A stretch of 64,000 nucleotides of DNA from an uncultured Gammaproteobacteria bacterium (GTDB taxonomy: Bacteria; Patescibacteriota; Microgenomatia; Daviesbacterales; UBA10151), in the NCBI GenBank assembly GCA_964625535.1, contig CAZVEX010000005.1, forward strand, positions 3,477 to 67,476, written 5' to 3'. The position numbers and the translations under genes were made by a program. The notes beneath the pieces were generated by a model. It was not told the DNA's origin and ran no database searches. It was given only the letters and a program-made list of their open reading frames with translations. Below, piece after piece: positions 24,658 to 48,909 of the stretch (the stretch's first letter is position 1; the number at the start of each line of letters is the position of its first letter).

Positions 24658-25088
24658 AATCCCCGGTATTTGATGGTGCGGAAATGAAAAACTTCTTCTC
24701 TAACAAGTCTTGCCCCGCCTTCAAACTTGCTGTCCGCCATGATAAACAGGGTATAGGTAGTGCCCAGTTCGTAGGGGCTAACAGGTATGATTTTGGCGGT
24801 TTTACGGTCACCCGAAAGCTCCACTCTATAATCTGTTTTTGGTTCTATTCTTATTTTAAATTCAGGTACATTTTCCAGCGGTCTGGAAAATGTCAGCTCA
24901 ATTGTCTCGGTTGAGGAAACAATGGTTTCGTCCAGAGGATCAGGTTTGGTGGAAACTATTCTGGGAATTTCCGGCAAGGAAGAAGGAGCTGGTTTTGTTC
25001 TGTTTGATCCTTGCCTTGATCCCAATAGGACCACAACAATTATAAGTATTATAATCGTTATAAATATTATATTTTTTTTCATTGGCAA
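24654..25088 (-). CDS. Hypothetical membrane-anchored protein (last gene of the T4SS-like operon)
   Basis: 144 aa, N-terminal TM helix, beta-rich C-terminal domain. 10-nt overlap with the upstream hydrolase gene. Confidence 0.4.
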   Translation of the reverse strand: MPMKKNIIFITIIILIIVVVLLGSRQGSNRTKPAPSSLPEIPRIVSTKPDPLDETIVSSTETIELTFSRPLENVPEFKIRIEPKTDYRVELSGDRKTAKIIPVSPYELGTTYTLFIMADSKFEGGARLVREEVFHFRTIKYRGF

Positions 25089-27169
25089 AGGTTAAAATAG
25101 GTATCTGCCGGTTTGAATTCTCCATTTTCTTGGATGGTAATATGGACATGAGCCCCATAAGGGTTACTCTGGTAATATTTGCCGATTAGCTTATTTGATT
25201 GAGCTTGTGAACCCAATATTAAATCTGGCGGGATAGATTCAAGGTGAACAAACCGGATGCGATAATGTTTTCCCTCGGCAATAGTGGTAGCCACAAAATC
25301 TTCTCCACCGCCTTCGGCGTCAGATATTGTCTTGGAAGCTTCAGTCACATTCCAGGTGACCTCTTTCCCGTTGATGACGGGAAGATAGACAGAAGGAAAT
25401 GTGCCGACAATATCCACAGCCTTATCTCTGCCTGTATAGCCGGCTTCCCCCACGGTGCAGCCCTGGCTGCCATATTGTTGCACATAAGAAGGACTGCAAT
25501 GTCCTCCGGTTTCTTTTGATCCGTTGGTTATTCTACCGGCTGCTACAGGGCAGCCAATGATGTTTGTACCGGGGGCGGATGAGGCCTGACAGTTTTGCAG
25601 ATCTTGCCAGGTCTCTTCACAATAACTAAAGTTTCCATAAGCACAACTGTTATAATACCTGTTAATAGCCGTGGTAACTTGATCCTTGGTAGGTTGGGTG
25701 GTGATACCATTAGATTTTAATTTTTCAGCAGCAATCGATAAGCTTTCCGTCAGACTGCATAAATTTTTTCCAGGATTATAGACATCAATTATTTGCATTA
25801 GACCAACAGCTTTGGCAGTTCTGGCACCCTGGGCTATTTCTTCGCCGGTGCATGCTCCATCATGAGAGAACTGGCCGGATTTTTCGCAGAAAGTAGAACC
25901 TTCCTGACAATAGTTATTAGATTTAATGGCATCATGGTTATCATCTGCATTAGCCACCAAATTAGCACTTTCATGCATGGCTACACTGGCCAAAATAGCA
26001 GCCGGCACACCTGATTGGGCAGCAGCATTATTGACCCAACTCATTAGGCTGGAGCTTTTAATCGGTAAAGAATTACCGGATCTGGTAAATTTACAGTTGC
26101 TAAGATCTGCGACGGGTGTGGTAGATCCTCCTCCGGGTGAAGGGGTGGTAGTTTGGCTAGGGGGGGAGGTGATTGCCAAAAAGGCCAAAATCAGTAATAC
26201 CAGCAGGCCAAAAATTAAAAACTTTTTGCCCGGGCCGGGTATGGAAAGGCGCGAAGCTGAATTGGACAATCTGGCCCCGGCATTAATGGCTCCACTGCCC
26301 ACCCCCCCAAAAAACCTAGTCGCTCCGCCGCTTCTGATCCATGAGGGCAGCAGCGCTCCCAAGCCCCCTCCCCCTAATGCTCCCAAGGGCCCAAAACTCG
26401 CTCCGGCAATGCCGCCAATTCCCCCTGATGCCAATGTCCCAATTCTCATGGCAGTTAAATTTCTCTTGATAAAAACACCGGTTCTGGAAGCCAGATTTTT
26501 GCCGAATGATTTGATACCGGTAGGGAAATTAAACCGGGAAGCTCGCGGTATGGCATGTTCTCTGACCCCGCCTTTTTCGGCCACCCATATTTTTGATGGA
26601 GGTTTTTCTACAATTTTTCCGCTGCCGGTTGCCCTGACTAGTTTTGACGCATCCCCGGCTTCTCTGATTGCTCCTGTACTGGTGGCAGTGACCAAGTCTG
26701 ATTTGGCGCGTTCTACAATATGAATAACACGGGGGCGGCGGTAAGAAGAAATGGAAGGACCTGATGGCAAACCTATTCCAGGAAACCCTCCTGCTGCCCC
26801 TGCAGGTTGTTCTGACGGGCCGGCGGGCGGCGGCACTTCCTCTGCACCTGCTGGTTGTTCACCAACTACCTCAACCGGCTTTTCCTCCAATACTTTTGTT
26901 ATTTCGGTTTGTTGTTGAAGAGTTAAGTTTCCCAGCAGGCGTTTTATTTTATTGGGGTCTGACAGATACTTGGTGATGAACTCATCATCTTTTCCCTGAA
27001 GATCAGGGAACTGACGAAGCAAATCAAGACAATGGGTTTTATCAATAGGTATTCGTTCGCCATTCATCACCACAAAGGAAGGAATTTGTTTTAGATTGAA
27101 GCGGTTCTCCTGCAACGCTTTAAAAAATGCTTTAAGCTGTATAAAATCAACAGGCTTTAAATAATCCAT
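25079..27169 (-). CDS. VirB1-like bifunctional peptidoglycan hydrolase (lytic transglycosylase SLT domain + M23/LytM peptidase domain) with Gly/Pro-rich N-terminal region and a TM helix
   Basis: 696 aa. SLT-like 'ILASVAMHESANL' (catalytic Glu-Ser). C-terminal 'YGAHVHI' HxH motif of the M23 family. TM 'FLIFGLLVLLILAFLAI'. Gly-rich low-complexity linker. Confidence 0.65.
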   Translation of the reverse strand: MDYLKPVDFIQLKAFFKALQENRFNLKQIPSFVVMNGERIPIDKTHCLDLLRQFPDLQGKDDEFITKYLSDPNKIKRLLGNLTLQQQTEITKVLEEKPVEVVGEQPAGAEEVPPPAGPSEQPAGAAGGFPGIGLPSGPSISSYRRPRVIHIVERAKSDLVTATSTGAIREAGDASKLVRATGSGKIVEKPPSKIWVAEKGGVREHAIPRASRFNFPTGIKSFGKNLASRTGVFIKRNLTAMRIGTLASGGIGGIAGASFGPLGALGGGGLGALLPSWIRSGGATRFFGGVGSGAINAGARLSNSASRLSIPGPGKKFLIFGLLVLLILAFLAITSPPSQTTTPSPGGGSTTPVADLSNCKFTRSGNSLPIKSSSLMSWVNNAAAQSGVPAAILASVAMHESANLVANADDNHDAIKSNNYCQEGSTFCEKSGQFSHDGACTGEEIAQGARTAKAVGLMQIIDVYNPGKNLCSLTESLSIAAEKLKSNGITTQPTKDQVTTAINRYYNSCAYGNFSYCEETWQDLQNCQASSAPGTNIIGCPVAAGRITNGSKETGGHCSPSYVQQYGSQGCTVGEAGYTGRDKAVDIVGTFPSVYLPVINGKEVTWNVTEASKTISDAEGGGEDFVATTIAEGKHYRIRFVHLESIPPDLILGSQAQSNKLIGKYYQSNPYGAHVHITIQENGEFKPADTYFNLCQ

Positions 27170-27184: not shown

Positions 27185-28963
27185 CTAAACGTTCCCTCTT
27201 GCCAGTATTTCTTGCGGATTAGAGGTAATGAGCTGATGTTCCTCCGGGGAGGCCACCACCCGCATGGCTACATGGGTGTTGCCAGCAAAAAACAAGCCTT
27301 GACCGATCCCTTCAGACAGCAACAATCTTTGTTCCCCCTCGGACAAATTAAAAACTTGGGCCAGAAGGTCAATGGAAACAGGAGCCTGTTTTAAAAGTAC
27401 CTGAATTGACGAGTTGGAAATTATTTCCTTACCCCGATCTCCACCCAGAAAATCTTCCACATCTTGAGTTATGGTGGTTAAACCCAGATAATATTTTCTG
27501 GCCCGCTTGGCCATGTCCACCAGAAAATTGGCAGAGTCTTCATTTCTCATTAAATACCAGGCTTCATCCACGATCATGATTCTTTTCTTGAGCTTGCTCC
27601 TTACCTTAGTCCAGACATAATCCAGGATCATATGCATGGCTAAAGGCCGCAGCTGATCGGCCAGGTCCCTGACGGAAAAGACCGTGAAGGAGTTAGCAAT
27701 GTCAATGTTGGATTGGGCGGAAAAAATGCCGGCTAAAGAGCCTTTAATAAACCTTTCCAGACGGACCGACAGTTCCATGGCCGCAGGTTCTTCCATGCCA
27801 ACCAGCACTTTATACAAATCTTCCATTAAGGGAGGCCCGCCTGTGCCGGGTTGGGTTTTGGGATCATCGGTAATGCCTTTTAAGGCGTAAGTTTGTTTCA
27901 AAGCCCGATCCAGCAGGGCAGCCTCTCCCGCGGAAAGTTGCCCCAAAACCAGTTTTAAAAAGGCAGTCAAAGATAAAATTTTCCTGCCCAGCTGGTTTTC
28001 GCCGGTAGTGTCTTGGGACAAGTCAAAGGGGTTGATTTTAACCGGAGAAGAAGAGGAAAAATTAATGAATTCTCCTCCCACCGCTTCGCAGAGAGGTAAA
28101 TATTCCTGTTCCGGGTCAATCACAATGATTTCCGTGCCAAACATCAAAGATCGCAAAGCTTCTAATTTTACAAAATAACTTTTTCCCGCGCCGGCTTTGG
28201 CAAAAACCACCGAATTGGCATTTTCCAGGGAGAAACGGTCAAACAGAATTAAAGAGTCATTGTGCTCATTGATGCCGTACATCACTCCCTCATTGGCAGT
28301 TAGTTCGGAGGAAGCAAAGGGAAAAGTGGTGGCCAGGGAAGTGGTGTCCATATTGTGAGTAAAATTTAAAAGGTCTGCGCCCTGGGGCAAGGTTGATTTA
28401 AAGCCGTCTTCCATTTGCAAAGTGGTGGGTTGGGTGGTAATGGAGAGCGAAGCCAGAGTGGATTCTATTAGTCTGGAGGTGTTATGCAGTTCGTCAAGAG
28501 AGGAGGCAGGTATTGTCACATACAAGGCAAAATCAAAAAACCTCTCCGCGCCCCTGACCAGCTGATCCTGCAGAGAGCGGGCATCTTCCAAAGCCACCTC
28601 CACTGCCGGGTCAATGGCTTTACCTCGCTCAAGATCGGTTTGAATGGTGGCTTCCATTTCGGCAATTTTTCTTTTCAACTCATCCAGCACTCCGGATGAA
28701 GGCGAGGGATAGATGAACATGGAAATAAGCAGGGAATGGTCAAAAGAAATTAGCGGTTCCAGCCAATTGGATTCCACAAACCTGGGATAATTTGAGACAA
28801 AATATGTGCGAAAATAGCGGTTATTGATTCTTAAATTATTAAAGTCAACCTCTATTTCAGCCGGAGACACCACATCCTCCAGAGTTAACTGGGGAGGAAT
28901 TTTTTCTTCCTGAACTTTTGTATTTTTCAATAAGCTGGGTAACTTCATAATTTTAAATTTCAA
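27185..28963 (-). CDS. virB4: VirB4/TraC-family type IV secretion ATPase, central and C-terminal part
   Basis: 592 aa. Walker A 'AKAGAGKS', Walker B 'IMIVDEAW' (VirB4-type DEAW), middle-region 'RYFRTYFVSNYPRFV' motif. Track start is TTG; ATG at 28948 is plausible. Confidence 0.8.
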   Translation of the reverse strand: MKFKIMKLPSLLKNTKVQEEKIPPQLTLEDVVSPAEIEVDFNNLRINNRYFRTYFVSNYPRFVESNWLEPLISFDHSLLISMFIYPSPSSGVLDELKRKIAEMEATIQTDLERGKAIDPAVEVALEDARSLQDQLVRGAERFFDFALYVTIPASSLDELHNTSRLIESTLASLSITTQPTTLQMEDGFKSTLPQGADLLNFTHNMDTTSLATTFPFASSELTANEGVMYGINEHNDSLILFDRFSLENANSVVFAKAGAGKSYFVKLEALRSLMFGTEIIVIDPEQEYLPLCEAVGGEFINFSSSSPVKINPFDLSQDTTGENQLGRKILSLTAFLKLVLGQLSAGEAALLDRALKQTYALKGITDDPKTQPGTGGPPLMEDLYKVLVGMEEPAAMELSVRLERFIKGSLAGIFSAQSNIDIANSFTVFSVRDLADQLRPLAMHMILDYVWTKVRSKLKKRIMIVDEAWYLMRNEDSANFLVDMAKRARKYYLGLTTITQDVEDFLGGDRGKEIISNSSIQVLLKQAPVSIDLLAQVFNLSEGEQRLLLSEGIGQGLFFAGNTHVAMRVVASPEEHQLITSNPQEILARGNV

Positions 28964-29688
28964 ATTGCATCCTCCAGTTCCTCCACCACAAAAGGGTGGG
29001 TTTTGACAATCTGGCTACTTAACGGAGGAGGATTATTAATGGCAGGTTTTTCTTGGACAGCAGGCGGCGGGGTAGGAGTGGACACAATCGGTTTAGGAGC
29101 ATTGAGTTTGACCGGTTGCGGCAGCGGAGTAAATTCTTCTCCACTACCGTTGTAAGCATTGTAAAAAAGCTCCAGTAGTTCCTTGCTTTGAAGCTGGGTG
29201 GCTTTTAGGCCAACACGGTTTAACTGTCTGATAACCTGATCGCGCCTTGGCAGAAGCACTGTTTTGACTTTTTGGTATAAGGCTTCTCTGGTAGGGATAA
29301 TCCCCAGCTCCAGCTTGGACAGAGGAATGACCACGTAGAATTTCTTATCCAACACCTCGTTTTCCTTAATGGTGGTTTGGATAAACTGGCGGTACGATGT
29401 CATCATAGCCGAAAGCAGTGGGTTGGTCTGGGCTTTTTGGGCATGATCCAGCAGGTTCAGATATGAGCTGATATTTAGTCTTTCCGACTGGATCACAATC
29501 TGAATGGCAAAGGACAGCGAATTTAACATTTGGGCAAAGCTGGCAATAATCCCTATTTGTTCTCTTTCCGATAACAGGCCAAAATTAACTGCGGAAACCT
29601 GCATTACCAGGGCGCCGCCGCCGTCTTTTAAAAGCAGTATATTGTCTTTAATATCGCTAATTAACAAATGTTCCTGGGTTGTGCTCAT
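28960..29688 (-). CDS. VirB4 N-terminal domain encoded as a separate ORF (split VirB4)
   Basis: 242 aa. 'LLLKDGGGALVMQVSAVNFGLLSEREQIGIIASFAQMLNSL..IQIVIQS' matches the VirB4 N-terminal consensus. 242 + 592 aa equals a full-length VirB4. The stop and downstream start are in different frames. Confidence 0.55.
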   Translation of the reverse strand: MSTTQEHLLISDIKDNILLLKDGGGALVMQVSAVNFGLLSEREQIGIIASFAQMLNSLSFAIQIVIQSERLNISSYLNLLDHAQKAQTNPLLSAMMTSYRQFIQTTIKENEVLDKKFYVVIPLSKLELGIIPTREALYQKVKTVLLPRRDQVIRQLNRVGLKATQLQSKELLELFYNAYNGSGEEFTPLPQPVKLNAPKPIVSTPTPPPAVQEKPAINNPPPLSSQIVKTHPFVVEELEDAI

Positions 29689-30695
29689 GATGAACTCCCT
29701 GCCGCCTTAGCTGTTATTATCAAAGGCGGTAAAACCTGACCGCCCAATTCTACCTGCAAGACATCAAAATTATATCCTTCCTTTTCCAGCTCCAGGGTAT
29801 AAGTGCCGTTGGGCAGTGGAGTTGAACCGCTAAACTGGCCCAGCTTATTGGTTTTTAGCGCGCGGACCGGTAAGCCTTCTTTATCATAAATAACCGTTAC
29901 CACCGCTTCCAGGTAATTCCCGGCAAGATCTTTAATAATGCCGTTTATTACATTGGGAAAGGTGGTCAGGGCAACTTGAGCCTGTTTGGGTTTGACAGGA
30001 ATGACTACTTTGACTTTTTCTATTGGGAGAGGGGGCAGAGGAGGGGGAGGCTTAACTTCATCAAGCCGGCTTCTTATTTGTGAAGCCTGAGACACCAGTT
30101 TTTGCAGTTCGGACATGATCTCACTGACCTGCTGGCTGTAATCAATGGGTACAGGAGAGGGTTTGGTGGCTTCATTCCGGATTTGGTGCAAAGCTCGCTC
30201 CGCCTGGATAATTCTCACCTGCAGCCCTTGGGCCTGTCTGGCCAGATCGACTGTTTTGCCAAGATCCTCGGTTGTGGGAAGAGATGGTAGAGATGGCGGG
30301 GGCGGAGCGGGGGGAGCAGATTCTTTGACCGGCTGGGGTCCCAGACTGGCAACATACATCACATAACGGCTTTTAAAAAGCGGATTTTCCCGAAAACCCT
30401 GACCCATTTTTTTCCAGGACCTTTTTGTGGGAGAATAAATCGTTTTTAAAAAAGTGGCCACCCAGTAATCCAGGGGGCGGGAGGCAAAAGGCAAAAAGGC
30501 AAAGGCCAAACCCAACAGGCTGGAGATGATAATCAGCGGCCAGGCTACTAAGGGGTAATCCTTGGCCACAGTCACAAATATAAGATAGGCAAACCCCGCG
30601 CCCCCGGCCAAATACAAAAACTGTTTTAGGGTCATATCCCCTACCAGGTGGAATTGAAAAGAGGTGACATTTTGCGGAATAGGATGCGGCTCCAT
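29685..30695 (-). CDS. VirB3-like two-TM protein with Pro-rich linker, coiled coil and C-terminal Ig-like/CarboxypepD_reg-like beta-sandwich domain
   Basis: 336 aa. Two N-terminal TM helices directly upstream of VirB4 (conserved VirB3 position), 'APPAPPPPSLPSLP' linker, C-terminal 'NGTYTLELEKEGY'-type beta-sandwich. Confidence 0.4.
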   Translation of the reverse strand: MEPHPIPQNVTSFQFHLVGDMTLKQFLYLAGGAGFAYLIFVTVAKDYPLVAWPLIIISSLLGLAFAFLPFASRPLDYWVATFLKTIYSPTKRSWKKMGQGFRENPLFKSRYVMYVASLGPQPVKESAPPAPPPPSLPSLPTTEDLGKTVDLARQAQGLQVRIIQAERALHQIRNEATKPSPVPIDYSQQVSEIMSELQKLVSQASQIRSRLDEVKPPPPLPPLPIEKVKVVIPVKPKQAQVALTTFPNVINGIIKDLAGNYLEAVVTVIYDKEGLPVRALKTNKLGQFSGSTPLPNGTYTLELEKEGYNFDVLQVELGGQVLPPLIITAKAAGSSS

Positions 30696-30993
30696 AGCTG
30701 AACTTCTTTATACCTCGTGAAAATACTATAGTCTAGGGGTACAAAATAGGTCAAAAAATGGCAATTTCAACCATTATATGAGTAACTACAATGTACTGAT
30801 ACAATATTTAGTGGGTTGACATCATCAGTTTTCCTGATATCCTGAAAGTGTGGTGTTTCACTCCGATGGTATATCGGAGAAGGAACAAAAAGGGAACTCT
30901 GTGTAAGTCAGAGACTGTGCCGCAACGGTGATTCCAGAGATACTGGATTAGTCCGGAGACCGACCACATTTTAGATCCCGTAGCAGGAGCAAT
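30696..30993. promoter_or_regulatory. Divergent promoter / long leader region between VirB3-like gene and 465-aa gene
   Basis: 298-nt non-coding gap. TTGACA at 30808-30813. Stable hairpin 'ctccgat-ggtat-atcggag' at 30861-30879. Confidence 0.3.
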
Positions 30994-32391
30994 ATGCTAG
31001 TAGAAGCGCCTCAATTTTCAACCACCCCAAAAGATTTAGCCGGTGGTCATTATGACCCTAACTTTCATTGGGAAGATACAATAGTCATTGCCAGACCAAT
31101 TGAGCGAATTTTACCCCCTCCAGAGGTTCAGGAACCGCAGTATCAACCAGTAGAGCTAGCAACCGGCTTGGTTATCAATCACCAGTTAAGAAAAGCCAAG
31201 TGGGATTCAGCCAAGGAAATAAAACGTTTTATATACGATATCAACGCAGGTTTAGAAAACGGGAATAATTTATCTGAAGCAGTCAACGCATCAGCAGGCG
31301 AGATTGTCAACAACATTGTGGCTTATTATAATGAGATTACCAGACAAAAACCCTTTTTAGTGCATACCAACAGATTTGATGAGTATAAAGGGCAAAGAAG
31401 GCTGGTGGGTAATAATGGTAGACCGGTGGTTGATGCCATCACAGCCGAGGAAAGAAAAGGCGCTGTTTTACAAGCCTCCCAAAAAATCGAAGCTGATTTA
31501 CTTGATGCTCCTAATAACTCCTTTATGGTCTTGATGAGTCCCGCCGGTTTAAATGGTTTTGTAGGTGAACATGGTCAAAGGTTGTCTCACTTAAATACCG
31601 AAGTAATGATTTTTTGGAAAAATCAAAACGGTTTGTTAAAAGGAGGTACGCTGGTTTTGGATTTAATGTACCAGCAAGCAGAAATGGTGATGGCGGATTT
31701 GGGAGTGACAAAAAAGCTCAGCGATGCAGATGAACTGGAAAGACTTGCCAATATTGTCAGAAACCCGATCTTATTTGCCTTTCCCCGCTCGGATATGACT
31801 CCTTTTGAGTATGTTTTAGATAAAATACTTGCGAGAAGAGGTAGCAGCGATTTCAGATTGCGTCAGCAAGACGGTAGCATAGAAACACGATCCATAGCAG
31901 AGGTCAGAGCCGATATCAGAGGATTTGATAAGATTTTGGAATTAACCGACGAGGAAGAAAAATGTCTTGCTGGATTCAGGCAGTTTATTTTGGATAATCA
32001 GGAAAGAGTTAACGAAAAAGGTGTTCAGCAGGCAATTATTAACAGGATGGGAAAAGCAGTCCTGATTATGGCAAGAATATATCTAGAAAGTAAAAATCCT
32101 GACCGAATGATCGCTTTTCATTCCCCCCAGCCTTCCGCATCTTATCACGAGGATAATTTTGATAGAGAAATTGCTTATCTTTTGACCAGAGCAGGTTGTC
32201 CGCCAGGGGGATCTTCAGGGTTGAGGGTTTTGAGTGGAATAAGTTTAGGTTCAGGTTTTTCCGGTTTCGGAGGAGGGGGAAAGAGTGAATGGTTTTGTAT
32301 TCGCTGTGGAGCTTGCGGAGCCTTGATTAATTGTGTGGTCAGGCCGGGAGAAAAATGCCCGGTTTGTCCGGCTGTTAGGCAATGCTCGTAA
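30994..32391 (+). CDS. Hypothetical protein with C-terminal Gly-rich segment and Cys-rich zinc-ribbon
   Basis: 465 aa. C-terminus 'CIRCGACGALINCVVRPGEKCPVCPAVRQC'. No recognisable catalytic domain. Immediately upstream of the 1400-aa gene. Confidence 0.4.
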   Translation: MLVEAPQFSTTPKDLAGGHYDPNFHWEDTIVIARPIERILPPPEVQEPQYQPVELATGLVINHQLRKAKWDSAKEIKRFIYDINAGLENGNNLSEAVNASAGEIVNNIVAYYNEITRQKPFLVHTNRFDEYKGQRRLVGNNGRPVVDAITAEERKGAVLQASQKIEADLLDAPNNSFMVLMSPAGLNGFVGEHGQRLSHLNTEVMIFWKNQNGLLKGGTLVLDLMYQQAEMVMADLGVTKKLSDADELERLANIVRNPILFAFPRSDMTPFEYVLDKILARRGSSDFRLRQQDGSIETRSIAEVRADIRGFDKILELTDEEEKCLAGFRQFILDNQERVNEKGVQQAIINRMGKAVLIMARIYLESKNPDRMIAFHSPQPSASYHEDNFDREIAYLLTRAGCPPGGSSGLRVLSGISLGSGFSGFGGGGKSEWFCIRCGACGALINCVVRPGEKCPVCPAVRQCS

Positions 32392-32460
32392 AATCAACCT
32401 CATTTCCGTCAGGATTTTGTAAGGAATAAATCAAGCACTTCGCTTGCGCTCAGTGTAAAC

Positions 32461-35400
32461 TTGTCGCAGAAATTGACAATTAGTTCACAAAAACCATACA
32501 CTAAAATGAGTAAAGAAATAATTATGGCAGAAACAGCAGAAGCGCCGGTTCAAGCTCCCGAAGGGGAGACATTCTCACCCGCAGATGCGCCGGATACGGC
32601 TGCCGGAGTTGAAAGATTTTTAAACCGAACCCCCCGTGATTTATCTGCCCTCGGGGATGTCCCTCCCGAAGATGCAGAAACTCAACCATCTGCGGATGGG
32701 GGTGGAACAGCAGCGGTAGGAGAAGGAGGAAGAGGTAGGGGTTCTGACGGCCCCGGCGGTAGAGGCCCGGAAGAACCACTTGAACCCCCAGAAGGATTCA
32801 GAAGATTTGATTGGGAGGGGCATTTAGAAGTACTGTGGAGTCCGGAGTTTAGAGCTGAAATGTGGGATACTGTAGAACAACTTAGCATAATTGAGGCTTG
32901 GCCGACGGAGCTAAAATATGATGGTGGTGAAACTGAGCGATATTCCAACGACCTTTTTAAATATTGGAAATATCTGGAATCTTTGGATAACAAAAGATCA
33001 TATGAAAGCAAACCATTTACCCCGGCAGATTTTGAGCCGATAAAGATTACTCCTGAAGTGCTGGAACAACCAGAAGACAAACTAACCGATTTACAACCAT
33101 TTAAAGTTGTGTTTGAACGTTATCAGAGTTCGCGTAATTCTGAAGGTGAAGTAAGCAGATATTTTAATGAGATGAGGAGAATGGGGCTTGTAAACGGCGT
33201 AGATGATTCTTTGAAAAGCATTTATGCCCAAATAATGCAGGGTATGGAAATGGTGACGGAGGAAGATGGTAGAGGAGCAAGGAGAAGAATGGATAAGGAT
33301 GAGATTATGGACAGGGTAGAAAAAGCCCGGGCAGCCATGGTTAGATCAGCAGAAAGAGCTCTGAAAACATTGAAGCGATCTGATTCAACGAAAGTAGATT
33401 TAGTAAAAATAGGCAAATTAGAAGGGGGATTGGAAGCCTATATTGAGCTGGGAGTTGGCAGATTTGACCTGTTGTTGACAGGTGGAGGATTGATGCAACC
33501 TCCGGGTATCGAAGGTGAATTCGACTTCAATATAGGGGATGTTGGGTCGGAAAGTGCTGTAGCCTTTAGAAGGTTGGCTGCTGAAGGAGAAATCTTCTGG
33601 CGTCCGACCTGGGCCAATTATTTTGAAGTATCTGCCAGAACTCCGCAGCAATTCCAGAGAGCAATAGAAACTTTTATCCGGTGGATGAGAACAGGTCTTG
33701 GAAAAGATCCTGAGGATCTTTTCCAAAAAGTAAACGGATTTAAAGAGGCTTTAACTGCTGCCGGTCAAAGAGCAGGCCCTGAAGCACAAGAATATACAGT
33801 AGGGTTAAGGTTGCTGCTGGAGATTTTAATGGGGGTAATAGGCGCTGATTTTTCCAATGAACAATATAAGGCTGCCAACTTCAAGGCTTTTTGGCAGTTT
33901 GCAGCAAAAAACGAAGGTCCTGACAGAATGCTTCAGCTGGCCAAAGCATTCAGAGGCATATTACCTGTAGTTTTACATAAATTTGATAAAGATATCACTA
34001 ATGAACTATTGTTTTCTCCTCATGGCTCAAGAGGGCAGTTAATGGGTAGAGAACGCAATGCTATCGAAATGGATGATCTGCAAAAGCAAAAATTGGCAAT
34101 ATTAACAGCACAGATAATGGGTATTGCTATGAAAGGTTATCATCCTGATGATGCTGAACAAATTCTGGATAGTAATATGTATAAGAGAAATTTGGCTGAA
34201 ATAACCAAGTTTAAATCAGATGAGTATTTTGAAAACTTGTATGAGGGGTTTGATCCGGCCGAGCAGGAAGCACTTCTTAGACAATTGGAAGCACACCCCC
34301 TCATACGAAATATTAAGTTTGCAAAGCTGGTTAATGAACAGGCTTTTATCGGGCCACTAACACCAGAACAAACACAATTTTATAAGGATTGGAAATCAGG
34401 CGATCTGATTAAATCTATCCAGGAAAAAGAACAAAACATCAAGTTCGCCAGATGGGTCCAAGCACAGATTGATAAAGGTGAGCAGCCTGAATTAAGCGGA
34501 AAAAGGCTACAAATTTATAATGACTGGAAAGAGAATGCATTGCCCCGTCCCCCAATTGCCTTATCACAGCTGCAAGCCTGGGAAAGACTGGATAGAGCCA
34601 GCAGGATTCAACAGTATCTGGCAGCAGGCAATGACCCCGATAAATTAACCGGAGAAGACAAAATCATGTATGAGGAGGCCAAAAATGTTGTTACTTTGGC
34701 TTATGAGCTGTATGGAGCAATGGGTGAAAAAGCCAAAAGGGGTGGAGGTGTTTTCCTGGTAGAGAGAAGCAAACCAGATGGTACTGTCATGAGAGATTTG
34801 CAGGGCCAGCCAGTGGTTGATTATATCCCGGTTCATTGGGCGGAAAAATTTGTCCATTTTGCCGAAAATTGGACCAAAGCTACTTATGGCGACCTGCCTG
34901 CAGCCGAATTGAAATATAGGGTAGACCAAGCTAGGAGAATGGCTACCTGGGCTTTAAAAACCTATGGATATGATGCAAAGCTATGGGATTTTACCCTACT
35001 CAGGAATGGTAAGCCTGTAGATCCTAATACTTTGGGTTATAGCAAATATGGTCAAGATCTTAGTAAAAGTGAAAGCGACCCAGTAGAAAGGATAGAAAGG
35101 TTTAGATATGCGCCTCCTGAAAACCCAAGAATTTTGGGTTATAACTCTAAAGGCGAGGAAGTAATCTTAGTTTTTGATGATGATGGTAGGCCTGTTGGTT
35201 TGGAGTTTGATCGAGATAACAAAGCTGTTATTTATGATAAGTTTTTTGTCAAAATAGATGAAAGAGGGAGACCTGTAGATCAAGAGGGCAATCCCGTCGC
35301 GCCTACCCAAACTAATCGTATTATTTTTGATAATTTTGATAAAGCAGAGCCAATGCTACTTAAAATACCCAGAGGGACTATAGATCCTAAGACCGGCAAA

Positions 35401-36663
35401 ATGATAGTACAGGGTGAGCCGGAGAAGGTGCATATAGGTTTTGATGCGATCACTCACCGCTTTCCCTCTCATCCTTATTCCCGCTGGACAGGTCATCCTT
35501 ATTGGGGTTATCAGGAAGAAGATACAGGATTGGTTTTAAGCCCCGAATCTTTTGATGCTGCCAGAAGAATCAAAAACGGCCAGTTGCGACCGGAAGATGC
35601 ACCGCCTCATGCAGTCCAGCTTTTAATAGTTGATCCAACTCTGGAACGCGTTGGCCATTTTGATTTAGAAAGCTTAGAAGCTGTGGTTGGCCTGGCTGCT
35701 GTAGAGGAGTCATATCAAGCTCACTGGAGAATTGGGGACGAGCTGTATATGAATTTTTTCCCTGAAGACGCTTCCCGTGTTAAAAACCGCACTGCTTATA
35801 TCTTGCAGGATCATGGCGGTTCTACTAAGCAGTGGTTTCACATTAGAGCCGAAGCTGCCCTGTGGCCTGATTCTAGAGTGAGAAGACTTAGGATTTTTAC
35901 TCCCTTTATACCTTTACCCTTTGCTTCCATGTCTGAAATGTGGGGGGCACCGGGAGGAGCGCTGGATGTTTTCAGAATGATGGGATATGAAAAGTACAAG
36001 ATGGTTGGACAGTTTGCCATGGATAAGTGGGTTAATCAAATAGATGGAGCCCAGGATGTGTACGAGAGTATAGCTGACTGGTATAGCCCACAGGAGAAGA
36101 GACTTAAAGAAGGGTTGGGTAGAAAACTTAACAATGAAGCTGATGTAAACCTAAAGAAGCATTATCAGCAGGTTGTGATAACTGGAGAACTTCAACCTGG
36201 ACCATCAACCCGTGAAGATATATATGAGCAGTATCTTGTTAGTTCCAGAGATTCATTAAATAGAGAGGAAGTTCTCCAGCAAAGAAACACGGTTCTAGGA
36301 TCTTTTATGAGGGGAGAACGTGCTCCTTTATGGCTGGAAGGTATAGATACTTTTCTAAAGGAGGACTTGGTGGACAAGAAGACCGGTAAAATTACCAAGA
36401 AGGGTGATTTTAATCCTAAAATTGATGAGATGAGAGATTCAGGTTCATCAAGACACACAAACAGGATATTTCACTATAGGTATGCCAGATTTATAAGGTC
36501 TCCAGCGGGACAAGCTTTATACCCTGATACGGCCAGGTATTATGCATTATTGGATAATCCTCTAGCTGATTATCCAAGGTTGGTTGAGGAATTTGCGGGA
36601 ACAGGGAAGAGCCCGGCACAAGTAACTGGATGGGATTGGTTAGACAGTAAAATGAATAATTAG
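32461..36663 (+). CDS. Giant hypothetical protein (1400 aa), Gly/Arg-rich disordered N-terminus, Trp/Tyr-rich, no TM helix or signal peptide
   Basis: Uninterrupted 4.2-kb ORF embedded antisense in the T4SS-like locus. N-terminal 'GGGTAAVGEGGRGRGSDGPGGRGPEEP'. No known catalytic motif recognised. Confidence 0.5.
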   Translation: MSQKLTISSQKPYTKMSKEIIMAETAEAPVQAPEGETFSPADAPDTAAGVERFLNRTPRDLSALGDVPPEDAETQPSADGGGTAAVGEGGRGRGSDGPGGRGPEEPLEPPEGFRRFDWEGHLEVLWSPEFRAEMWDTVEQLSIIEAWPTELKYDGGETERYSNDLFKYWKYLESLDNKRSYESKPFTPADFEPIKITPEVLEQPEDKLTDLQPFKVVFERYQSSRNSEGEVSRYFNEMRRMGLVNGVDDSLKSIYAQIMQGMEMVTEEDGRGARRRMDKDEIMDRVEKARAAMVRSAERALKTLKRSDSTKVDLVKIGKLEGGLEAYIELGVGRFDLLLTGGGLMQPPGIEGEFDFNIGDVGSESAVAFRRLAAEGEIFWRPTWANYFEVSARTPQQFQRAIETFIRWMRTGLGKDPEDLFQKVNGFKEALTAAGQRAGPEAQEYTVGLRLLLEILMGVIGADFSNEQYKAANFKAFWQFAAKNEGPDRMLQLAKAFRGILPVVLHKFDKDITNELLFSPHGSRGQLMGRERNAIEMDDLQKQKLAILTAQIMGIAMKGYHPDDAEQILDSNMYKRNLAEITKFKSDEYFENLYEGFDPAEQEALLRQLEAHPLIRNIKFAKLVNEQAFIGPLTPEQTQFYKDWKSGDLIKSIQEKEQNIKFARWVQAQIDKGEQPELSGKRLQIYNDWKENALPRPPIALSQLQAWERLDRASRIQQYLAAGNDPDKLTGEDKIMYEEAKNVVTLAYELYGAMGEKAKRGGGVFLVERSKPDGTVMRDLQGQPVVDYIPVHWAEKFVHFAENWTKATYGDLPAAELKYRVDQARRMATWALKTYGYDAKLWDFTLLRNGKPVDPNTLGYSKYGQDLSKSESDPVERIERFRYAPPENPRILGYNSKGEEVILVFDDDGRPVGLEFDRDNKAVIYDKFFVKIDERGRPVDQEGNPVAPTQTNRIIFDNFDKAEPMLLKIPRGTIDPKTGKMIVQGEPEKVHIGFDAITHRFPSHPYSRWTGHPYWGYQEEDTGLVLSPESFDAARRIKNGQLRPEDAPPHAVQLLIVDPTLERVGHFDLESLEAVVGLAAVEESYQAHWRIGDELYMNFFPEDASRVKNRTAYILQDHGGSTKQWFHIRAEAALWPDSRVRRLRIFTPFIPLPFASMSEMWGAPGGALDVFRMMGYEKYKMVGQFAMDKWVNQIDGAQDVYESIADWYSPQEKRLKEGLGRKLNNEADVNLKKHYQQVVITGELQPGPSTREDIYEQYLVSSRDSLNREEVLQQRNTVLGSFMRGERAPLWLEGIDTFLKEDLVDKKTGKITKKGDFNPKIDEMRDSGSSRHTNRIFHYRYARFIRSPAGQALYPDTARYYALLDNPLADYPRLVEEFAGTGKSPAQVTGWDWLDSKMNN

Positions 36664-36677
36664 AAGCGCGCCGAAAT

Positions 36678-38571: not shown

Positions 38572-38898
38572 TTATGGGTTGGGTTGGCACCATGGCAAGC
38601 CCGCTCCTCCGCAAAGCGCTCTGATATCAAAAAATGTTACTTTTACTCCGGTCACCGCTTCAATAAGCTGCAGAATTATCCAGGCTATGGCCAAAAAAAG
38701 TATCCCCAATAAAGCCCAGGTGACAGTTAAATGGGCAGCTTGTATAGCCTTGGGTTCTCCGCCTGAAGTTAAATATTTGATTCCGGCCCAGGTAAGCACG
38801 ACCAAAGAGGCAATAAAGCCCAATCCTACTATGACGGAAATGCCTTTGGAAAAAACCTCTTCAATTTGTTGCAAACCGGCAGGTGAAGGATTGAGCAT
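38572..38898 (-). CDS. TrbC/VirB2-family pilin-like protein (paralog 1)
   Basis: 108 aa, two hydrophobic helices around 'WAGIKYLTSGGEPKAIQAAH' (family motif W..Y..GGxxE/K...A). Confidence 0.55.
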   Translation of the reverse strand: MLNPSPAGLQQIEEVFSKGISVIVGLGFIASLVVLTWAGIKYLTSGGEPKAIQAAHLTVTWALLGILFLAIAWIILQLIEAVTGVKVTFFDIRALCGGAGLPWCQPNP

Positions 38899-38934
38899 AT
38901 ATTAAGGTTAGCACTAATAGGGTATAAAGATCAA

Positions 38935-39261
38935 TTATGAGGGGCTGGGGTTGGGGGTGGGGATAACAATGTTGGTTATGTTCAATCCTGTGAATTGTCC
39001 GGCCACTCTGGCCAGGGCAAAAGCCACAGCCAAAACAGCCAAGCCAATCAAGGCATTGATAATTCTATTTCTGGCCTTGCTGACGGCCTCTTTGTCTCCG
39101 CCGGAAGTAATCCATTCAAACGCTCCCCAGATTAGCATTACCAGAACTACCAGCAGTCCCAGACTAAAAGCCAGCAATAGAAAATTGCTGATAAACTCGC
39201 CCAAACTGGCATAACCTTTACCTTGGGGAGGGGTAATAGTAATGGTAGGAGCCGGACTCAT
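38935..39261 (-). CDS. TrbC/VirB2-family pilin-like protein (paralog 2)
   Basis: 108 aa, 'LIWGAFEWITSGGDKEAVSKARNRIINALIGLAVL'. Compare RP4 TrbC '[28 protein letters not shown]'. Confidence 0.6.
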   Translation of the reverse strand: MSPAPTITITPPQGKGYASLGEFISNFLLLAFSLGLLVVLVMLIWGAFEWITSGGDKEAVSKARNRIINALIGLAVLAVAFALARVAGQFTGLNITNIVIPTPNPSPS

Positions 39262-39300
39262 AATCTAATCTTATTCACAAAACTATTTACTTGTCAAGCA

Positions 39301-39837
39301 TCACTTTTGACCTTCAAAAAACTTAAAGCCGGTAAATTGTCCCAAAACCTGGATAACTGCAAAGGTAATAGCCAAAAGCAAAATTCCCACCACAGCATTA
39401 ATGATTTTTTTTCTGGCCGAATCCAGTTTTTCCTTGTCCCCCTCCGAGGTCATCCAGTCCCATCCTCCCCAAAGCAGCATGAAAATTAACACTACCCCGG
39501 CAGCTGCATAAATTAAACCTACCAGATTGGACAAAAACCTGCTGATCCCCCCGGCTCCTGTGGGATCAGGGGAGGTAAAGGGTAACAGTTCCGGAGGAGG
39601 ATTGATAGTGCCGAAGGACTTACCAACTTCTGATTTTTCACAAGTACCTCGACTAGGATCAGCCGTGAGGGGTTTACAAACCAACCCTGCTTCACAATGC
39701 CCATTGGGATCTTTTATAAAACAGAAACCCGGTTCTTTTATATGATGAGCCAATACTACGTTAGCGTTGATCCCGAAAAACAGACAAATAAAGATCAAAA
39801 GAAAAAGTTTTTTAATCATACAAGAATATATTATCAT
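39301..39837 (-). CDS. Pilin-like protein with N-terminal signal peptide and Cys-rich extracellular extension fused to TrbC/VirB2 core (paralog 3)
   Basis: 178 aa, signal peptide, six Cys in 'CFIKDPNGHCEAGLVCKPLTADPSRGTCEK', then 'LWGGWDWMTSEGDKEKLDSARKKIINAVVGILLL' pilin core. Confidence 0.6.
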   Translation of the reverse strand: MIIYSCMIKKLFLLIFICLFFGINANVVLAHHIKEPGFCFIKDPNGHCEAGLVCKPLTADPSRGTCEKSEVGKSFGTINPPPELLPFTSPDPTGAGGISRFLSNLVGLIYAAAGVVLIFMLLWGGWDWMTSEGDKEKLDSARKKIINAVVGILLLAITFAVIQVLGQFTGFKFFEGQK

Positions 39838-39907
39838 TAATTTACAAAGCGCAACAACTAGTTAATGTAATTCTATTATAGGTTTGATAAATAGATAAGA
39901 TTATGGT

Positions 39908-40615
39908 ATGATAGATAAAATTATGAAAAGAGAAAGCGAGCTTAAATCAAGGGCAATACGTATTGGAGGTACTGTTTTAGTAACTACAGTTATGGGTTTA
40001 GCATTAGAGCAAGGTGTAAAAACGGTTAATGCGGAAACTCCTACGGCTACAGCCACTCCCACCAGAACGCCTACTCCTACAGGTACGCCTACCCCGGATA
40101 TAGAAATAGTTAATAAACAAGCGACTATTACAGCTTTAAACAAACAGCTTGAAAGGGCAAGACAACTAGCAGATCTGCGGGCAACCGAAGCTGCTGTTCG
40201 CAGGGAAATAGATAAAGTTATGGGTACGCCTCCGGCTACTTCTACCCCTACTGCTCAAGAGCTAGAAAGACAGAGGATTGAGCAAGCTGCTATAAAAGAG
40301 ATTGCAGATAGGTGGGGGACTGCCACAGCCCAGGCAGAATTAAGACCAGCTACACCTACTCCCTTTCCTCTTCCCCCAAGACCGGCCGGGCCCAAACCCA
40401 AGGAAGAACATGATCCGACAGGCGGTTTGGATATAGGCGGGTTAGTCCCTTGGGTGGGAGGAGTAGCCGCGCTTGTTACAGCCGTGGTAGGTTGGTTAAA
40501 CAGGGGCAGAATTCTGGGTTTATTTAGAAGAGGCGGTGGAGACGCTGATGTAGATGTAACTCCTGATGATGATCCTTTGAGACCAGTCCCTCCTAGACCG
40601 CCAACAACTACCTGA
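39908..40615 (+). CDS. Thr/Pro-rich hypothetical protein with N- and C-terminal TM helices (only plus-strand ORF inside the pilin array)
   Basis: 235-aa ORF, 'TPTATATPTRTPTPTGTPTP' repeats, central coiled coil. The mirror minus ORF 39901-40143 is low-complexity. Coding status uncertain. Confidence 0.3.
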   Translation: MIDKIMKRESELKSRAIRIGGTVLVTTVMGLALEQGVKTVNAETPTATATPTRTPTPTGTPTPDIEIVNKQATITALNKQLERARQLADLRATEAAVRREIDKVMGTPPATSTPTAQELERQRIEQAAIKEIADRWGTATAQAELRPATPTPFPLPPRPAGPKPKEEHDPTGGLDIGGLVPWVGGVAALVTAVVGWLNRGRILGLFRRGGGDADVDVTPDDDPLRPVPPRPPTTT

Positions 40616-40985
40616 TGATTTGGAATCCGGTTATCCCAAAAAGACTGGATAGTAAGAATTGTAACACCAAAAAGGCAGACATTAAAATAAAAAAGCCGAT
40701 AATGGCATGAGTTATCATTTGCCTGGCTCCCTCCATTTCTTCTTTATTGCCTCCTGCCCGCAAATACCGGAAAGCCCCAAAAAGAAAATACATGATGACC
40801 ATTACTGCTGTTATCGAAAAGGCCGGAGTGACCAGCTTTGATGTGGCCTCGCCCAAAGAAGTAATATTGCCAAAGCCGAATTTTTCACCAATGGGAATGG
40901 GAGATTGGGCAAGAACGGGAATAACCATTAACAGGTAACTGGTGACGAGAATATAAATTTTTAATTTTAAATTTTTAATTTTCAT
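40608..40985 (-). CDS. TrbC/VirB2-family pilin-like protein with signal peptide (paralog 4)
   Basis: 125 aa, 'FGAFRYLRAGGNKEEMEGARQMITHAIIGFFIL'. The 5' end 'MKIKNLKLKI' is encoded by an AAAATT(A/G)AAAATTT repeat. Confidence 0.6.
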   Translation of the reverse strand: MKIKNLKLKIYILVTSYLLMVIPVLAQSPIPIGEKFGFGNITSLGEATSKLVTPAFSITAVMVIMYFLFGAFRYLRAGGNKEEMEGARQMITHAIIGFFILMSAFLVLQFLLSSLFGITGFQIIR

Positions 40986-41033
40986 TCAAATTTTAATATT
41001 TCAATTTTAAATGTTTAAATAACAATAAGTAAA
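40960..41033. repeat. AT-rich degenerate tandem repeats (aatttt/ttcaaatttt units) flanking the Avd-like gene, downstream side
   Basis: 'ttttaattttaaatttttaattttcattcaaattttaatatttcaattttaaatgtttaaat'. Confidence 0.7.
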
Positions 41034-41393
41034 TTACTTAGTACTAAATGCTATTTTAGAAAAAATCAAGGTCAATTCTTGTGCTTCTTGCCATAATTTT
41101 CTGCACGCCTCTCTCGTCTCATTAATTGCTTTTGCAAGCAATCTTAGCCAATATTTTGTTTCTTTTGCTTCTTTTTTGCAAATAAAAATTTTGTTTTTGA
41201 AATCTTTTTTACTGCTTGCTCCGTTTGCTTCACAATAGTTAGCGCCTATGCTTGTTCCGGCTCTTAGGAGTTGATCTACTATAGGTATAGTAACTACATT
41301 TTTAGGAACATTTTTACAAAGTTCAATTATACTCTCTGCAAATGTTGCAGTTCTTTCTTCCAGATCATATTTTTTGTTTAATATTTTCATCAT
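41034..41393 (-). CDS. Four-helix-bundle protein of the 23S rRNA intervening-sequence / DGR Avd-like family
   Basis: 119 aa. 'DLEERTATFAESIIELCKNVPK...QLLRAGTSIGANYCEANGASSKKDFKNKIFICKKEAKETKYWLRLL' matches the IVS-protein/Avd family consensus. Inserted between pilin paralogs. Confidence 0.75.
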   Translation of the reverse strand: MMKILNKKYDLEERTATFAESIIELCKNVPKNVVTIPIVDQLLRAGTSIGANYCEANGASSKKDFKNKIFICKKEAKETKYWLRLLAKAINETREACRKLWQEAQELTLIFSKIAFSTK

Positions 41394-41440
41394 TTAAATT
41401 TGATTTCAAATTTCGAATTGTAAATTTCAAATTTCTAGAA
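41394..41440. repeat. AT-rich repeats (tttcaaattt units) flanking the Avd-like gene, upstream side
   Basis: 'ttaaatttgatttcaaatttcgaattgtaaatttcaaatttctag'. Confidence 0.7.
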
Positions 41441-41758
41441 TGGTACTCCTCCTCTGCCTGGAGTAAAGATTTCCCCGGCATATTTGGCCACAAAATAGGC
41501 TATCAAGGTGACCAACAGCCCAATCAAGGCCCATCTGATTCTGGCCCTGGCCTTGGCCAAACCTTCTTTATTCCCTCCGGCCATAATATACTGCCAGGCT
41601 CCCCATACCAGCCAGTAAAAGGCCATAAAAACCACCAGATAAAAGGCAATGTTTAAAATAGCTGATAATAAAGAACCCAGATCGGTGAACTTTTCTCCCA
41701 CAGGAGAAGGTTGAGGAATGTTTCCAAAACCAGGTAGTTGAATAGCTAATTTCATAGT
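41435..41758 (-). CDS. TrbC/VirB2-family pilin-like protein (paralog 5)
   Basis: 'LVWGAWQYIMAGGNKEGLAKARARIRWALIGLLVTL'. Start moved to the internal Met 'MKLAIQLPG' to remove the 65-nt overlap of the track ORF (41435-41833). Confidence 0.55.
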   Translation of the reverse strand, partial: TMKLAIQLPGFGNIPQPSPVGEKFTDLGSLLSAILNIAFYLVVFMAFYWLVWGAWQYIMAGGNKEGLAKARARIRWALIGLLVTLIAYFVAKYAGEIFTPGRGGVPF

Positions 41759-41768
41759 GACTCTAGTT

Positions 41769-47763: not shown

Positions 47764-48162
47764 GGGGACGTACAGTTTCGATTGGATGGCACTTTAAAAA
47801 CTGCAAGCCGAATAGGAAACATTATTCGTTAAATATTGTTTCAAACAACAAACGGCAATAACCTTGTCCGTGGTGCGCAAGCACTAGCTCTGGGCCTTTT
47901 TGGTCCTGTTGCTAGACCAGCTTATCTGGTAGCTTAAAGCATCTATTTTAGAATTCTTTTTCTGGCTAGAACCTAAAGTAATGTACCCAGTCAGAATGCT
48001 GTTAATACAATTCTGATCGATCAGTATTAACAAAAGAAAGTTTGATCATTCATTAGTTTTCCTGCTAACTGGTTACAACTAATGAACAAAAATTAATTAG
48101 CTAAGCTTGTAGAAGTTTTTAATTTGTTTTTCAACACAGGGCTCACAGCCCTCGTCTCCACA
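47764..48162 (+). ncRNA. ssrA: tmRNA (SsrA), ~400 nt
   Basis: Immediately downstream of smpB. 5' 'GGGGACGUACAGUUUCGAUUGGAUGG' (tmRNA-type 5' acceptor/D region with UUCGA). 3' 'CGUCUCC-ACA' pairs with the 5' GGGGACG acceptor half. Internal ORF-like segment ends '...AYLVA-UAA'. Followed by a terminator hairpin. Confidence 0.65.
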
Positions 48163-48908: not shown

Positions 48909-48909
48909 G

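Follow-up and report, generated by a model that had tools for sequence, protein, structure and literature searches.

Type IV secretion systems (T4SS) of Patescibacteria have been surveyed by Quinonero-Coronel et al. (2025, PMC12102498): MPF-FATA-like systems, encoded near dnaA and beside the replication origin, with pilin arrays (25% identity) and no relaxase; VirB8 and the type IV coupling protein (T4CP) are rare or lie far from virB4, VirB6 is hard to detect in Microgenomatia, the system was essential for epibiotic growth in the single species tested, and there is no known role, cargo or regulator (PMC12102498). The role is completely unknown according to a recent review (PMC11665869). The locus described here lies in a 64-kb stretch (64,000 nt) of contig CAZVEX010000005.1, from an ultra-small bacterium of the Daviesbacteria, referred to below as the window, and is a member of this published class, sharing with it VirB4, TrsD, PrgI/VirB3 and a VirB2-like pilin array, the dnaA–dnaN neighbourhood (the T4SS locus adjoins both genes) and the absence of a relaxase or T4CP nearby. 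Subject of the analysis was a plus-strand pair of genes set among the minus-strand T4SS genes, encoding a soluble protein of 465 aa and a giant protein of about 1400 aa, together with a cobalamin (B12) riboswitch directly in front of the first gene (coordinates, Table 1); a term search of the survey gave no mention of an opposite-strand giant gene, a 465-aa gene or a riboswitch (PMC12102498). Both open reading frames (ORFs) were present where the first-pass annotation had placed them; the riboswitch at their head had been missed.

The preferred reading, given a probability of about one half, is that an accessory gene repressed by B12 precedes the gene of a host-facing giant dedicated to the T4SS, probably a cargo. 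Bound B12 would block the initiation of translation of the 465-aa protein and, by polarity, would lower expression downstream, so that the 465-aa protein would be made mainly at low intracellular B12. The giant would be co-expressed with the 465-aa gene in loci of the window type and would be a dedicated exported, host-contacting substrate of the T4SS, not a housekeeping protein or a core part of the channel. Low B12, a cofactor for which these bacteria must depend on a host, would raise both proteins and would couple cofactor starvation to T4SS-based exploitation of the host.

Cobalamin riboswitch: the aptamer matched RF00174 over the full length of the model, well above the gathering score (Table 1). 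The B12 box (AGTCCGGAGACCGACC, 30950–30965; read as AGUCCGGAGACCGACC) has the form that defines the family, and the core GGGAAC...GUG.AA.UC...CUGUGCCGCAAC was invariant or nearly so in nine of the ten aligned loci, L017 (adenosylcobalamin II, AdoCbl-II, type) being the divergent one. The P6 extension varies in length; it is short in the window (4 nt in place of 56 consensus positions) and long in L001, L011 and L016. An aptamer of the cobalamin clan was found directly upstream of the 465-aa homologue in all ten distinct Daviesbacteria-type loci, which were collected through the 465-aa family and include the window, and the order aptamer–leader–gene in the related loci was the same as in the window; nine loci matched RF00174 at 45.6–57.5 bits, and one (L008/L017) was AdoCbl-II (39.3 bits vs gathering score 36.5). 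One 5-bp hairpin of the aptamer, compared in nine sequences, had two-sided changes in four of its five pairs and none broken; for that hairpin, compensatory changes of this kind support the predicted helix. By all defining features that can be read from sequence (full-length match, B12 box, core, compensatory stem changes), the RNA belongs among the cobalamin riboswitches (RF00174, clan CL00101, with AdoCbl-II as RF01689).

The aptamer is placed as in other cobalamin riboswitches, in the 5' leader, on the same strand and directly before the start codon: its 3' end lies 2 nt before the Shine–Dalgarno (SD) sequence and 11 nt before ATG 30994. The 22-nt block that holds the SD sequence and the ATG is the presumed expression platform; it was conserved at the nucleotide level in eight of ten loci, the encoded proteins being merely 41–48% identical. 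No plus-strand terminator-like site was predicted in the leader or between the 465-aa gene and the giant, and control is presumably translational, because there is no room for a terminator between the aptamer and the start codon; bound B12 would most likely repress translation of the 465-aa gene. A conserved TGnTAT was noted at the 5' edge of the Rfam match (30835–30840), and at the aligned positions of nine other loci, with little or no variation at the G, T, A and T; it looks like an extended −10 promoter element, from which transcription would start right at the P1 stem.

B12-riboswitch regulons usually repress transport and salvage genes when B12 is present, and the gene behind the window aptamer is likewise expected to be repressed at high B12, as in the classical B12 regulon (btuB/btuFCD, metE, nrd genes). 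The window aptamer differs from known cobalamin riboswitches in its setting: the downstream genes stand outside the usual regulon classes (transport, biosynthesis, B12-independent MetE or Nrd), neither protein being a transporter or a recognisable B12-independent isozyme, and the element is embedded in a Patescibacterium T4SS locus. The searchable literature gave no link of cobalamin riboswitches to Patescibacteria or the Candidate Phyla Radiation (CPR), and nothing usable on B12-dependent ribonucleotide reductase (RNR) in CPR.

The 465-aa protein: an AlphaFold2 (AF2) model built with the family alignment had a predicted local distance difference test score (pLDDT) of 82 and a predicted template modelling score (pTM) of 0.75, with the Gly-rich linker before the zinc ribbon disordered. 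The model gave no significant fold match, and Pfam, NCBIfam, PHROGs, PADLOC and PDB sequences gave no match to the protein, alone or as a 48-sequence profile; as modelled, the fold is one without a known relative. No transmembrane (TM) segment was predicted, and there was no similarity in sequence or fold to known B12 proteins (BtuB/F/G/M, CbiM, CblC, adenosyltransferases, B12-binding domain, MetE, Nrd). All 48 homologues are from Patescibacteria/Daviesbacteria. About 20 residues are invariant in the family, mainly polar or charged (E75, N84, E114, H124, R136, E153, R154, N201, K209, T219, D223, R282 and others), a pattern that suggests a ligand-binding or catalytic site; a near-invariant Cys (C402) stands in the RAGCP motif just before the linker. 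The C-terminus (CIRCGACGALINCVVRPGEKCPVCPAVRQC) carries two CxxC-type knuckles and is a zinc ribbon with a predicted C4 metal site, in agreement with the earlier description; C441 and C458 were conserved in at least 90% of the 48 homologues, and two ribbon subtypes occur within the family. A glycyl-radical or class III RNR identity was considered and rejected: the spacing of the motif differs from R-V-x-G-[YF], and the fold is unlike the barrel of RNR and pyruvate formate-lyase.

The giant protein: when 1.84 billion representative proteins were searched exhaustively with a profile, the family was seen to comprise 73 clusters (50% identity); 54 clusters had E ≤ 1e-30, almost all members measured 1200–2100 aa, and the label "orphan" attached to the giant in the first-pass annotation had to be dropped. 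Word-indexed searches returned four or five relatives, even with a nine-sequence profile, the candidate filter being probably saturated. Pfam, NCBIfam, PHROGs and PADLOC were without match for the giant, and sequence and profile searches of the PDB were empty; 28 divergent giants searched against Pfam gave nothing beyond one chance-level match to Dynamitin. Hidden Markov models (HMMs) of known MPF-FATA components (VirB4, VirB6/PrgH, VirB3/PrgI, VirB8/PrgL, VirB1/PrgK, TrsD, T4CP) and of relaxases matched neither the 465-aa protein nor the giant. Homology to a housekeeping enzyme, named beforehand as a result that would refute an effector, was not found in the searches made; a CobN-like chelatase was considered for the giant and rejected for want of a Pfam match. 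No known family could be given for either protein.

The description of the giant as a protein with neither TM helix nor signal peptide and with a Gly/Arg-rich N-terminus holds: the maximum 19-residue hydropathy was 1.55, no signal peptide was found, and the N-terminal 100–110 residues or so have a high content of Gly, Glu, Ala, Pro and Arg. Short collagen-like Gly-X-Y runs were seen in this region (window, residues ~76–100, nt ~32731–32805, GRGRGSDGPGGRGPEEP; L007, GPEGPRGPE), and such runs occur in the disordered N-terminal region of several giants. The protein is predicted to be mostly helical, with a beta-rich variable insert at residues ~850–975. The AF2 model of residues 186–1385 (five-sequence alignment) was poor (pLDDT 41.5, pTM 0.28), and no fold could therefore be assigned.

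The extreme termini of the giant are kept even in members with ~20% identity otherwise. The C-terminal motif T-x-x-[DE]-[WF]-[LIF]-F-[GSD]-K-x(3-4)-COOH was present in 58 of 64 full-length members (window, TGWDWLDSKMNN, nt 36625–36660), and the N-terminal motif M-[AP]-[ED]-G..SPE in 46 of 64. Across the family the C-terminal ~450 residues are best conserved and the N-terminal half is variable. The window giant has no Cys at all, and in the family Cys amounts to 0.12% (121 in 99,522 residues) vs 0.75% in 30 ORFs of the window; depletion of this kind may be taken as a weak sign of export.

Evolutionary rates, as identities of window orthologues to those of five loci: VirB4 81–91%, DnaN 64–88%, PrgI 61–66%, VirB6-like protein 50–61%, 465-aa protein 41–48%, ~700-aa orphan downstream of virB4 31–39%, giant 24–33% (with 21–30% gap columns). 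The giant is thus the fastest-evolving gene of the locus; even in the closest relative (L012), with DnaN 88% and VirB4 91% identical, it was only 24% identical. By these figures the plus-strand pair is a hypervariable island within a very conserved machine. Divergence of this kind would be expected of host-interaction factors, and it resembles the 25% identity of the pilin arrays (PMC12102498).

Synteny: in all 16 inspected loci that contain the giant (nine of Daviesbacteria type and seven more divergent ones, L018–L024), its gene is found in the interval from prgI to the VirB6-like gene, is read from the opposite strand and converges with the latter gene, the two ends being 0–60 nt apart. A wide occurrence in genomes without T4SS-like genes had been set down beforehand as evidence against an effector; the distribution found is the opposite. 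The divergent giants are from Logan assemblies, and their taxonomy is deduced solely from VirB4, 71–72% identical to that of the window in L018 and L019. The scan of genomes yielded six loci and that of metagenomes seven; both relied on one narrow peptide pattern, and the true distribution is therefore under-sampled. A 465-aa homologue was absent in six of the seven divergent loci, the exception being L022, with a distant homologue of 542 aa (HMM E 1.3e-31) upstream of the giant. No riboswitch was found in any of the seven: none in L018 and L019 even at E ≤ 1, and none at gathering scores in L020–L024, the sequence upstream being limited to 165 nt in L022. Riboswitch and 465-aa gene go together as one unit, and the riboswitch does not follow the giant. 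From the synteny in 16 loci, and from the lack of the unit in divergent ones, it follows that the giant is an old, locus-defining component of the Microgenomatia-type Patescibacteria T4SS and that the riboswitch with the 465-aa gene is a lineage-restricted (Daviesbacteria-type) addition.

The start of the giant is at ATG 32506 in GenBank, where both genes are entered on a contig of 339 kb, and at TTG 32461 in the longest ORF; by comparison with the N-termini of the family (M-[AP]-[ED]-G...), the true start may be ATG 32524 (MAETAEAP...). The corresponding gaps to the 465-aa gene are 114, 69 and 132 nt. Co-expression of both genes in the window would follow from the 114-nt spacer, because it is free of a terminator. 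A promoter-like match in the spacer (32473–32502) is no evidence of a promoter, because 11 such matches were found where chance would give 12.4.

A hot spot of insertion was seen in the spacer that separates the 465-aa homologue from the giant. In L006 (11244–12904) and L007 (11346–12882) this spacer holds PIN/VapC-like and RelE/HigB-like toxin–antitoxin modules (judged by eye from the translations), in L012 (12327–16320) three P-loop ATPase genes of ~390–430 aa, and in L017 (11281–14505) an uncharacterised gap of 3.2 kb. The proposal that the 465-aa protein is a chaperone, immunity protein or regulatory partner of the giant lost ground on three counts: most divergent giants do without a homologue, genes intervene in L006, L007 and L012 with a 3.2-kb gap in L017, and the cobalamin riboswitch of its own, in 10 of 10 distinct loci, ties the 465-aa gene to B12 status. 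The broader proposal of a T4SS-linked effector kept its part on the giant, favoured by linkage to the locus (16 of 16), fast divergence, low Cys and conserved termini; the orphan status and the partner or immunity ideas did not stand.

The giant is most likely an exported substrate because of its fast, indel-rich evolution, its low content of Cys, the lack of a TM helix and of a signal peptide, the conserved termini and the fixed slot. The closest analogue is CagA of the Helicobacter pylori cag T4SS island, a protein of ~1200 aa, without homologues of known function, partly disordered, strain-variable and served by the chaperone CagF. Like CagA, the giant is large and variable, lacks a signal peptide and is encoded inside a T4SS locus with a partner gene nearby. 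The parallel has limits: the sequences are not similar, the cag system is of the diderm kind and has a coupling protein, and the 465-aa protein, under riboswitch control and missing from most divergent loci, differs from a chaperone of the small, acidic type; translocation of the giant is putative.

Several observations weigh against the preferred reading. As to export, low Cys is found in cytoplasmic neighbours as well (VirB4, 1 in 592; RpoD, 0 in 363); the C-terminal motif of the giant is unlike the known types of T4SS signal (Arg-rich tail, E-block, XVIPCD or similar) by the authors' comparison and could simply belong to a folded domain; the giant may have an enzymatic or structural fold, given a model of pLDDT 41.5; and no T4CP of the VirD4/TcpA type was found among the scanned ORFs of at least 150 aa (37 of the 46 ORFs listed for the window), VirB4 being the sole T4SS-type ATPase among them. 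As to B12, no B12-dependent or B12-transport gene was found within the 64-kb window, and the anti-SD pairing of UCCUG with CAGGA in the minimum-free-energy fold was not adopted as the switching mechanism, its bases possibly belonging to the −10-like TGnTAT and so possibly preceding the start of transcription. As to the joint control of both genes, L009 has the riboswitch and the 465-aa gene next to prgI with no giant adjacent; because of this locus, of the intervening genes in L006, L007 and L012 and of the gap in L017, the riboswitch cannot be a general regulator of the giant. Lineages free of the riboswitch have unrelated genes in the interval from prgI to the giant, and the riboswitch unit could be a passenger in a variable spot.

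The gene contents of single loci were recorded as follows. L009 (11411–20712): giant, VirB6-like gene and pilins not adjacent to the riboswitch and 465-aa gene, a Fic-domain gene in their place, and after it two minus-strand genes, one for a protein of 1107 aa with a HAWAEVW motif of transglutaminase type and one for an AAA-type protein of 1301 aa (both by eye). L021 (1745–2584, plus strand): a PrmA-like S-adenosylmethionine methyltransferase just upstream of the giant. L020 (2813–8391, plus strand): proteins of 965, 772 and 116 aa just upstream of the giant; the 116-aa protein is common to L020 and L024 (873–1223, plus strand; 67% identity) and, by this conservation, may be a small partner of the giant. 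Small genes of the four-helix-bundle family PF05635 (23S_rRNA_IVP) were found in L001 (8940–9320), L003 (9307–9696) and L023 (123–515), all on the minus strand, either in the interval from prgI to the riboswitch or immediately before the giant; those of L001 and L003 had a weak match to bAvd. Proteins of the bAvd type are found together with diversity-generating retroelements; the three loci showed no reverse transcriptase.

The alternative that survives best, itself rather unlikely, is a module for the acquisition of B12, in which the 465-aa protein, alone or with the giant, would be a new kind of protein that binds, processes or receives cobalamin and would take up or handle host cobalamin via the T4SS-like channel. 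It fits the usual logic of B12-riboswitch regulons. It is at odds with the 465-aa protein itself, which is unlike BtuF, BtuG, BtuM, CblC, adenosyltransferases and Rossmann-type B12-binding domains in sequence and fold, is without a TM segment and, at 41–48% identity against 64–88% for DnaN, diverges to a degree unusual for a cofactor-handling enzyme.

An unlikely alternative is that the giant is not exported and is a structural or cytoplasmic part in place of the undetected T4CP, of a VirB8-like protein or of a relaxosome or docking platform, with the 465-aa protein as a passenger. The single copy and fixed position of the giant (16 of 16 loci) are core-like, the genes upstream of it in other lineages are unrelated, and a replacement of this kind would agree with the rarity or distance of VirB8 and T4CP and the poor detectability of VirB6 in Microgenomatia (PMC12102498). 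A structural part would however not be expected to be the fastest-evolving and most indel-rich product of a locus in which VirB4, PrgI and the VirB6-like protein are 50–91% identical; the giant lacks a TM helix, Pfam shows no NTPase or relaxase in it, even in 28 divergent members, and against a mere passenger stand the same position of the riboswitch/465-aa unit in 10 of 10 Daviesbacteria-type loci and the distant homologue before the giant in L022.

Antisense regulation is improbable as the main function. Transcription of the plus strand would interfere with the virB6–pilin transcript and with read-through toward prgI–virB4, and B12 would tune the T4SS by collision of RNA polymerases or by antisense RNA; the plus-strand unit does split the minus-strand T4SS genes into two blocks, the ends of the giant and VirB6-like genes are 0–60 nt apart in every locus, and no plus-strand terminator-like site is present at 36664–36677. 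A giant ORF of 4–6 kb kept open in 73 clusters with conserved motifs is clearly a protein, the convergent layout is found in lineages without the riboswitch too, and the distance of 11 nt between aptamer and ATG points to translational, not transcriptional, control; an antisense effect on the virB6 and pilin genes may be additional.

A polymorphic toxin pair has a conserved N-terminal delivery region, a variable C-terminal toxin domain and a small immunity gene directly downstream. Such a pair, with the giant as toxin and the 465-aa protein as immunity protein or chaperone, is very improbable, although the two adjacent genes form a hypervariable pair inside a conserved secretion locus and the giant is free of signal peptide and TM helix: the conserved C-terminal ~450 residues and variable N-terminal half are the reverse of the expected layout, no small gene follows the giant (the next gene, 14 nt away, is the convergent VirB6-like one), six of seven divergent loci have the giant without a 465-aa homologue, and neither Pfam nor PADLOC gave a toxin or immunity match.

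Table 1. Positions of the features discussed, numbered from the first letter of the window.
Feature	Position (nt)	Strand	Remarks
Cobalamin riboswitch aptamer (RF00174)	30834–30982	+	56.2 bits vs gathering score 31.5; E 2.8e-11; model 1–189 of 189
Conserved block ATCCCGTAGCAGGAGCAATATG	30975–30996	+	SD sequence AGGAG (30985–30989) and start codon
465-aa soluble protein (ORF)	30994–32391	+	ATG start; GenBank hypothetical protein HYZ06_00990; order: helical hairpin, PAS-like antiparallel sheet, helical domain, RAGC(402)P, Gly-rich linker, zinc ribbon
Cys-rich zinc ribbon of 465-aa protein	32296–32388	+	Residues 435–464; C435/C438/C441 ... C455/C458
Spacer between 465-aa gene and giant	32392–32505	+	No plus-strand terminator-like site
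Giant protein (ORF)	32461–36663 or 32506–36663	+	TTG start, 1400 aa, or ATG start, 1385 aa; GenBank hypothetical protein HYZ06_00985 (P0001, Candidatus Daviesbacteria)
VirB4	27185–28963	−	TraG P-loop match, 1.5e-26
TrsD/TraC-like protein	28960–29688	−	TrsD match, 1e-7
PrgI/VirB3-like protein with CarboxypepD_reg domain	29685–30695	−	PrgI match, 1.3e-6
VirB6-like polytopic membrane protein, 614 aa	36678–38522	−	7 predicted TM segments
VirB2-like T4SS pilin array	38572–38898, 38935–39261, 39301–39837, 41769–42890	−	Within 38572–42890
235-aa Pro/Thr-rich ORF	39908–40615	+	C-terminal TM segment
696-aa ORF	25079–27169	−	One predicted TM segment; 13 Cys
Fic-domain protein	20074–21222	−	Just upstream of dnaA
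HsdM, HsdR	1987–5747	−	Type I restriction–modification
Competence-type cluster	48204–51517	+	ComF-like (phosphoribosyltransferase and double zinc ribbon), DprA, ComM (Mg-chelatase-like)
tmRNA and seven tRNA genes	47764–48163 (+), 48910–49104 (−), 52461–52703 (+), 56513–56597 (−), 63450–63521 (+)		tmRNA 86.6 bits; 52461–52703, tandem cluster of three tRNA genes

Neighbouring genes: the VirB4–TrsD–PrgI block (27185–30695) is transcribed divergently from the riboswitch. Convergence of the giant with the 614-aa gene, 14 nt apart, was seen as described before; the name "VirB6" rests on position and topology, because the 614-aa protein has no HMM match (none in Pfam, none in NCBIfam), and homologues of 44–61% identity occupy the same slot in related loci. 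In the pilin array, two matches to PF18895 (T4SS_pilin), with E values of 1.5e-7 and 9.2e-11, came from the pair of ORFs at 39301–39837 and 41769–42890, and the two 108-aa ORFs have a two-TM, pilin-like topology. The 465-aa gene and the giant had been called the only long plus-strand ORFs of the locus; this is not so, the 235-aa ORF lying on the plus strand inside the minus-strand pilin array, and L001 and L002 have a plus-strand ORF of 127–208 aa at the equivalent place.

The 696-aa ORF directly downstream of virB4 was without match in Pfam, NCBIfam and PADLOC and has a counterpart (489–796 aa) at the same position in all related loci; it is another uncharacterised, fast-evolving T4SS-linked protein, the second most divergent of the locus (31–39% identity). 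The competence-type cluster, at a distance of ~6 kb from the pilin array, bears on the proposal that host nucleic acids are taken up by these bacteria. The remaining entries of Table 1 (type I restriction–modification genes, Fic-domain protein, tmRNA and tRNA genes) were recorded as context of the locus.

The novelty lies in the combination: a metabolite riboswitch in a secretion locus, B12 control of a protein whose fold is unknown, and a giant that is conserved as a family, hypervariable in sequence and fixed in position. In a wider reading, tentative and doubtful as it stands, the T4SS-like machine of Daviesbacteria would be tied to cobalamin supply, the riboswitch reading the supply from the host by the intracellular level of a cofactor that no other source provides, and switching on a new-fold, B12-responsive protein together with a hypervariable giant cargo; the new-fold protein would then possibly bind or handle cobalamin as the founder of a new class, or act as an adaptor. 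If true, a Patescibacteria T4SS would for the first time have a regulatory input and a candidate substrate, and the riboswitch would be the first of the metabolite type to gate the cargo of a secretion system.

The 465-aa protein is a candidate for a new B12-related family, confidently modelled and without a fold relative, and the giant a candidate cargo in a fixed slot that evolves like a host-interaction factor. A ligand-specific RNA switch within the locus makes its regulation testable in vitro with a known small molecule, and the riboswitch could serve as a native inducible element for the genetics of Patescibacteria, a need named in PMC11665869. For a secretion machine of unknown role, the riboswitch and the giant are the first candidate regulator and the first candidate cargo.

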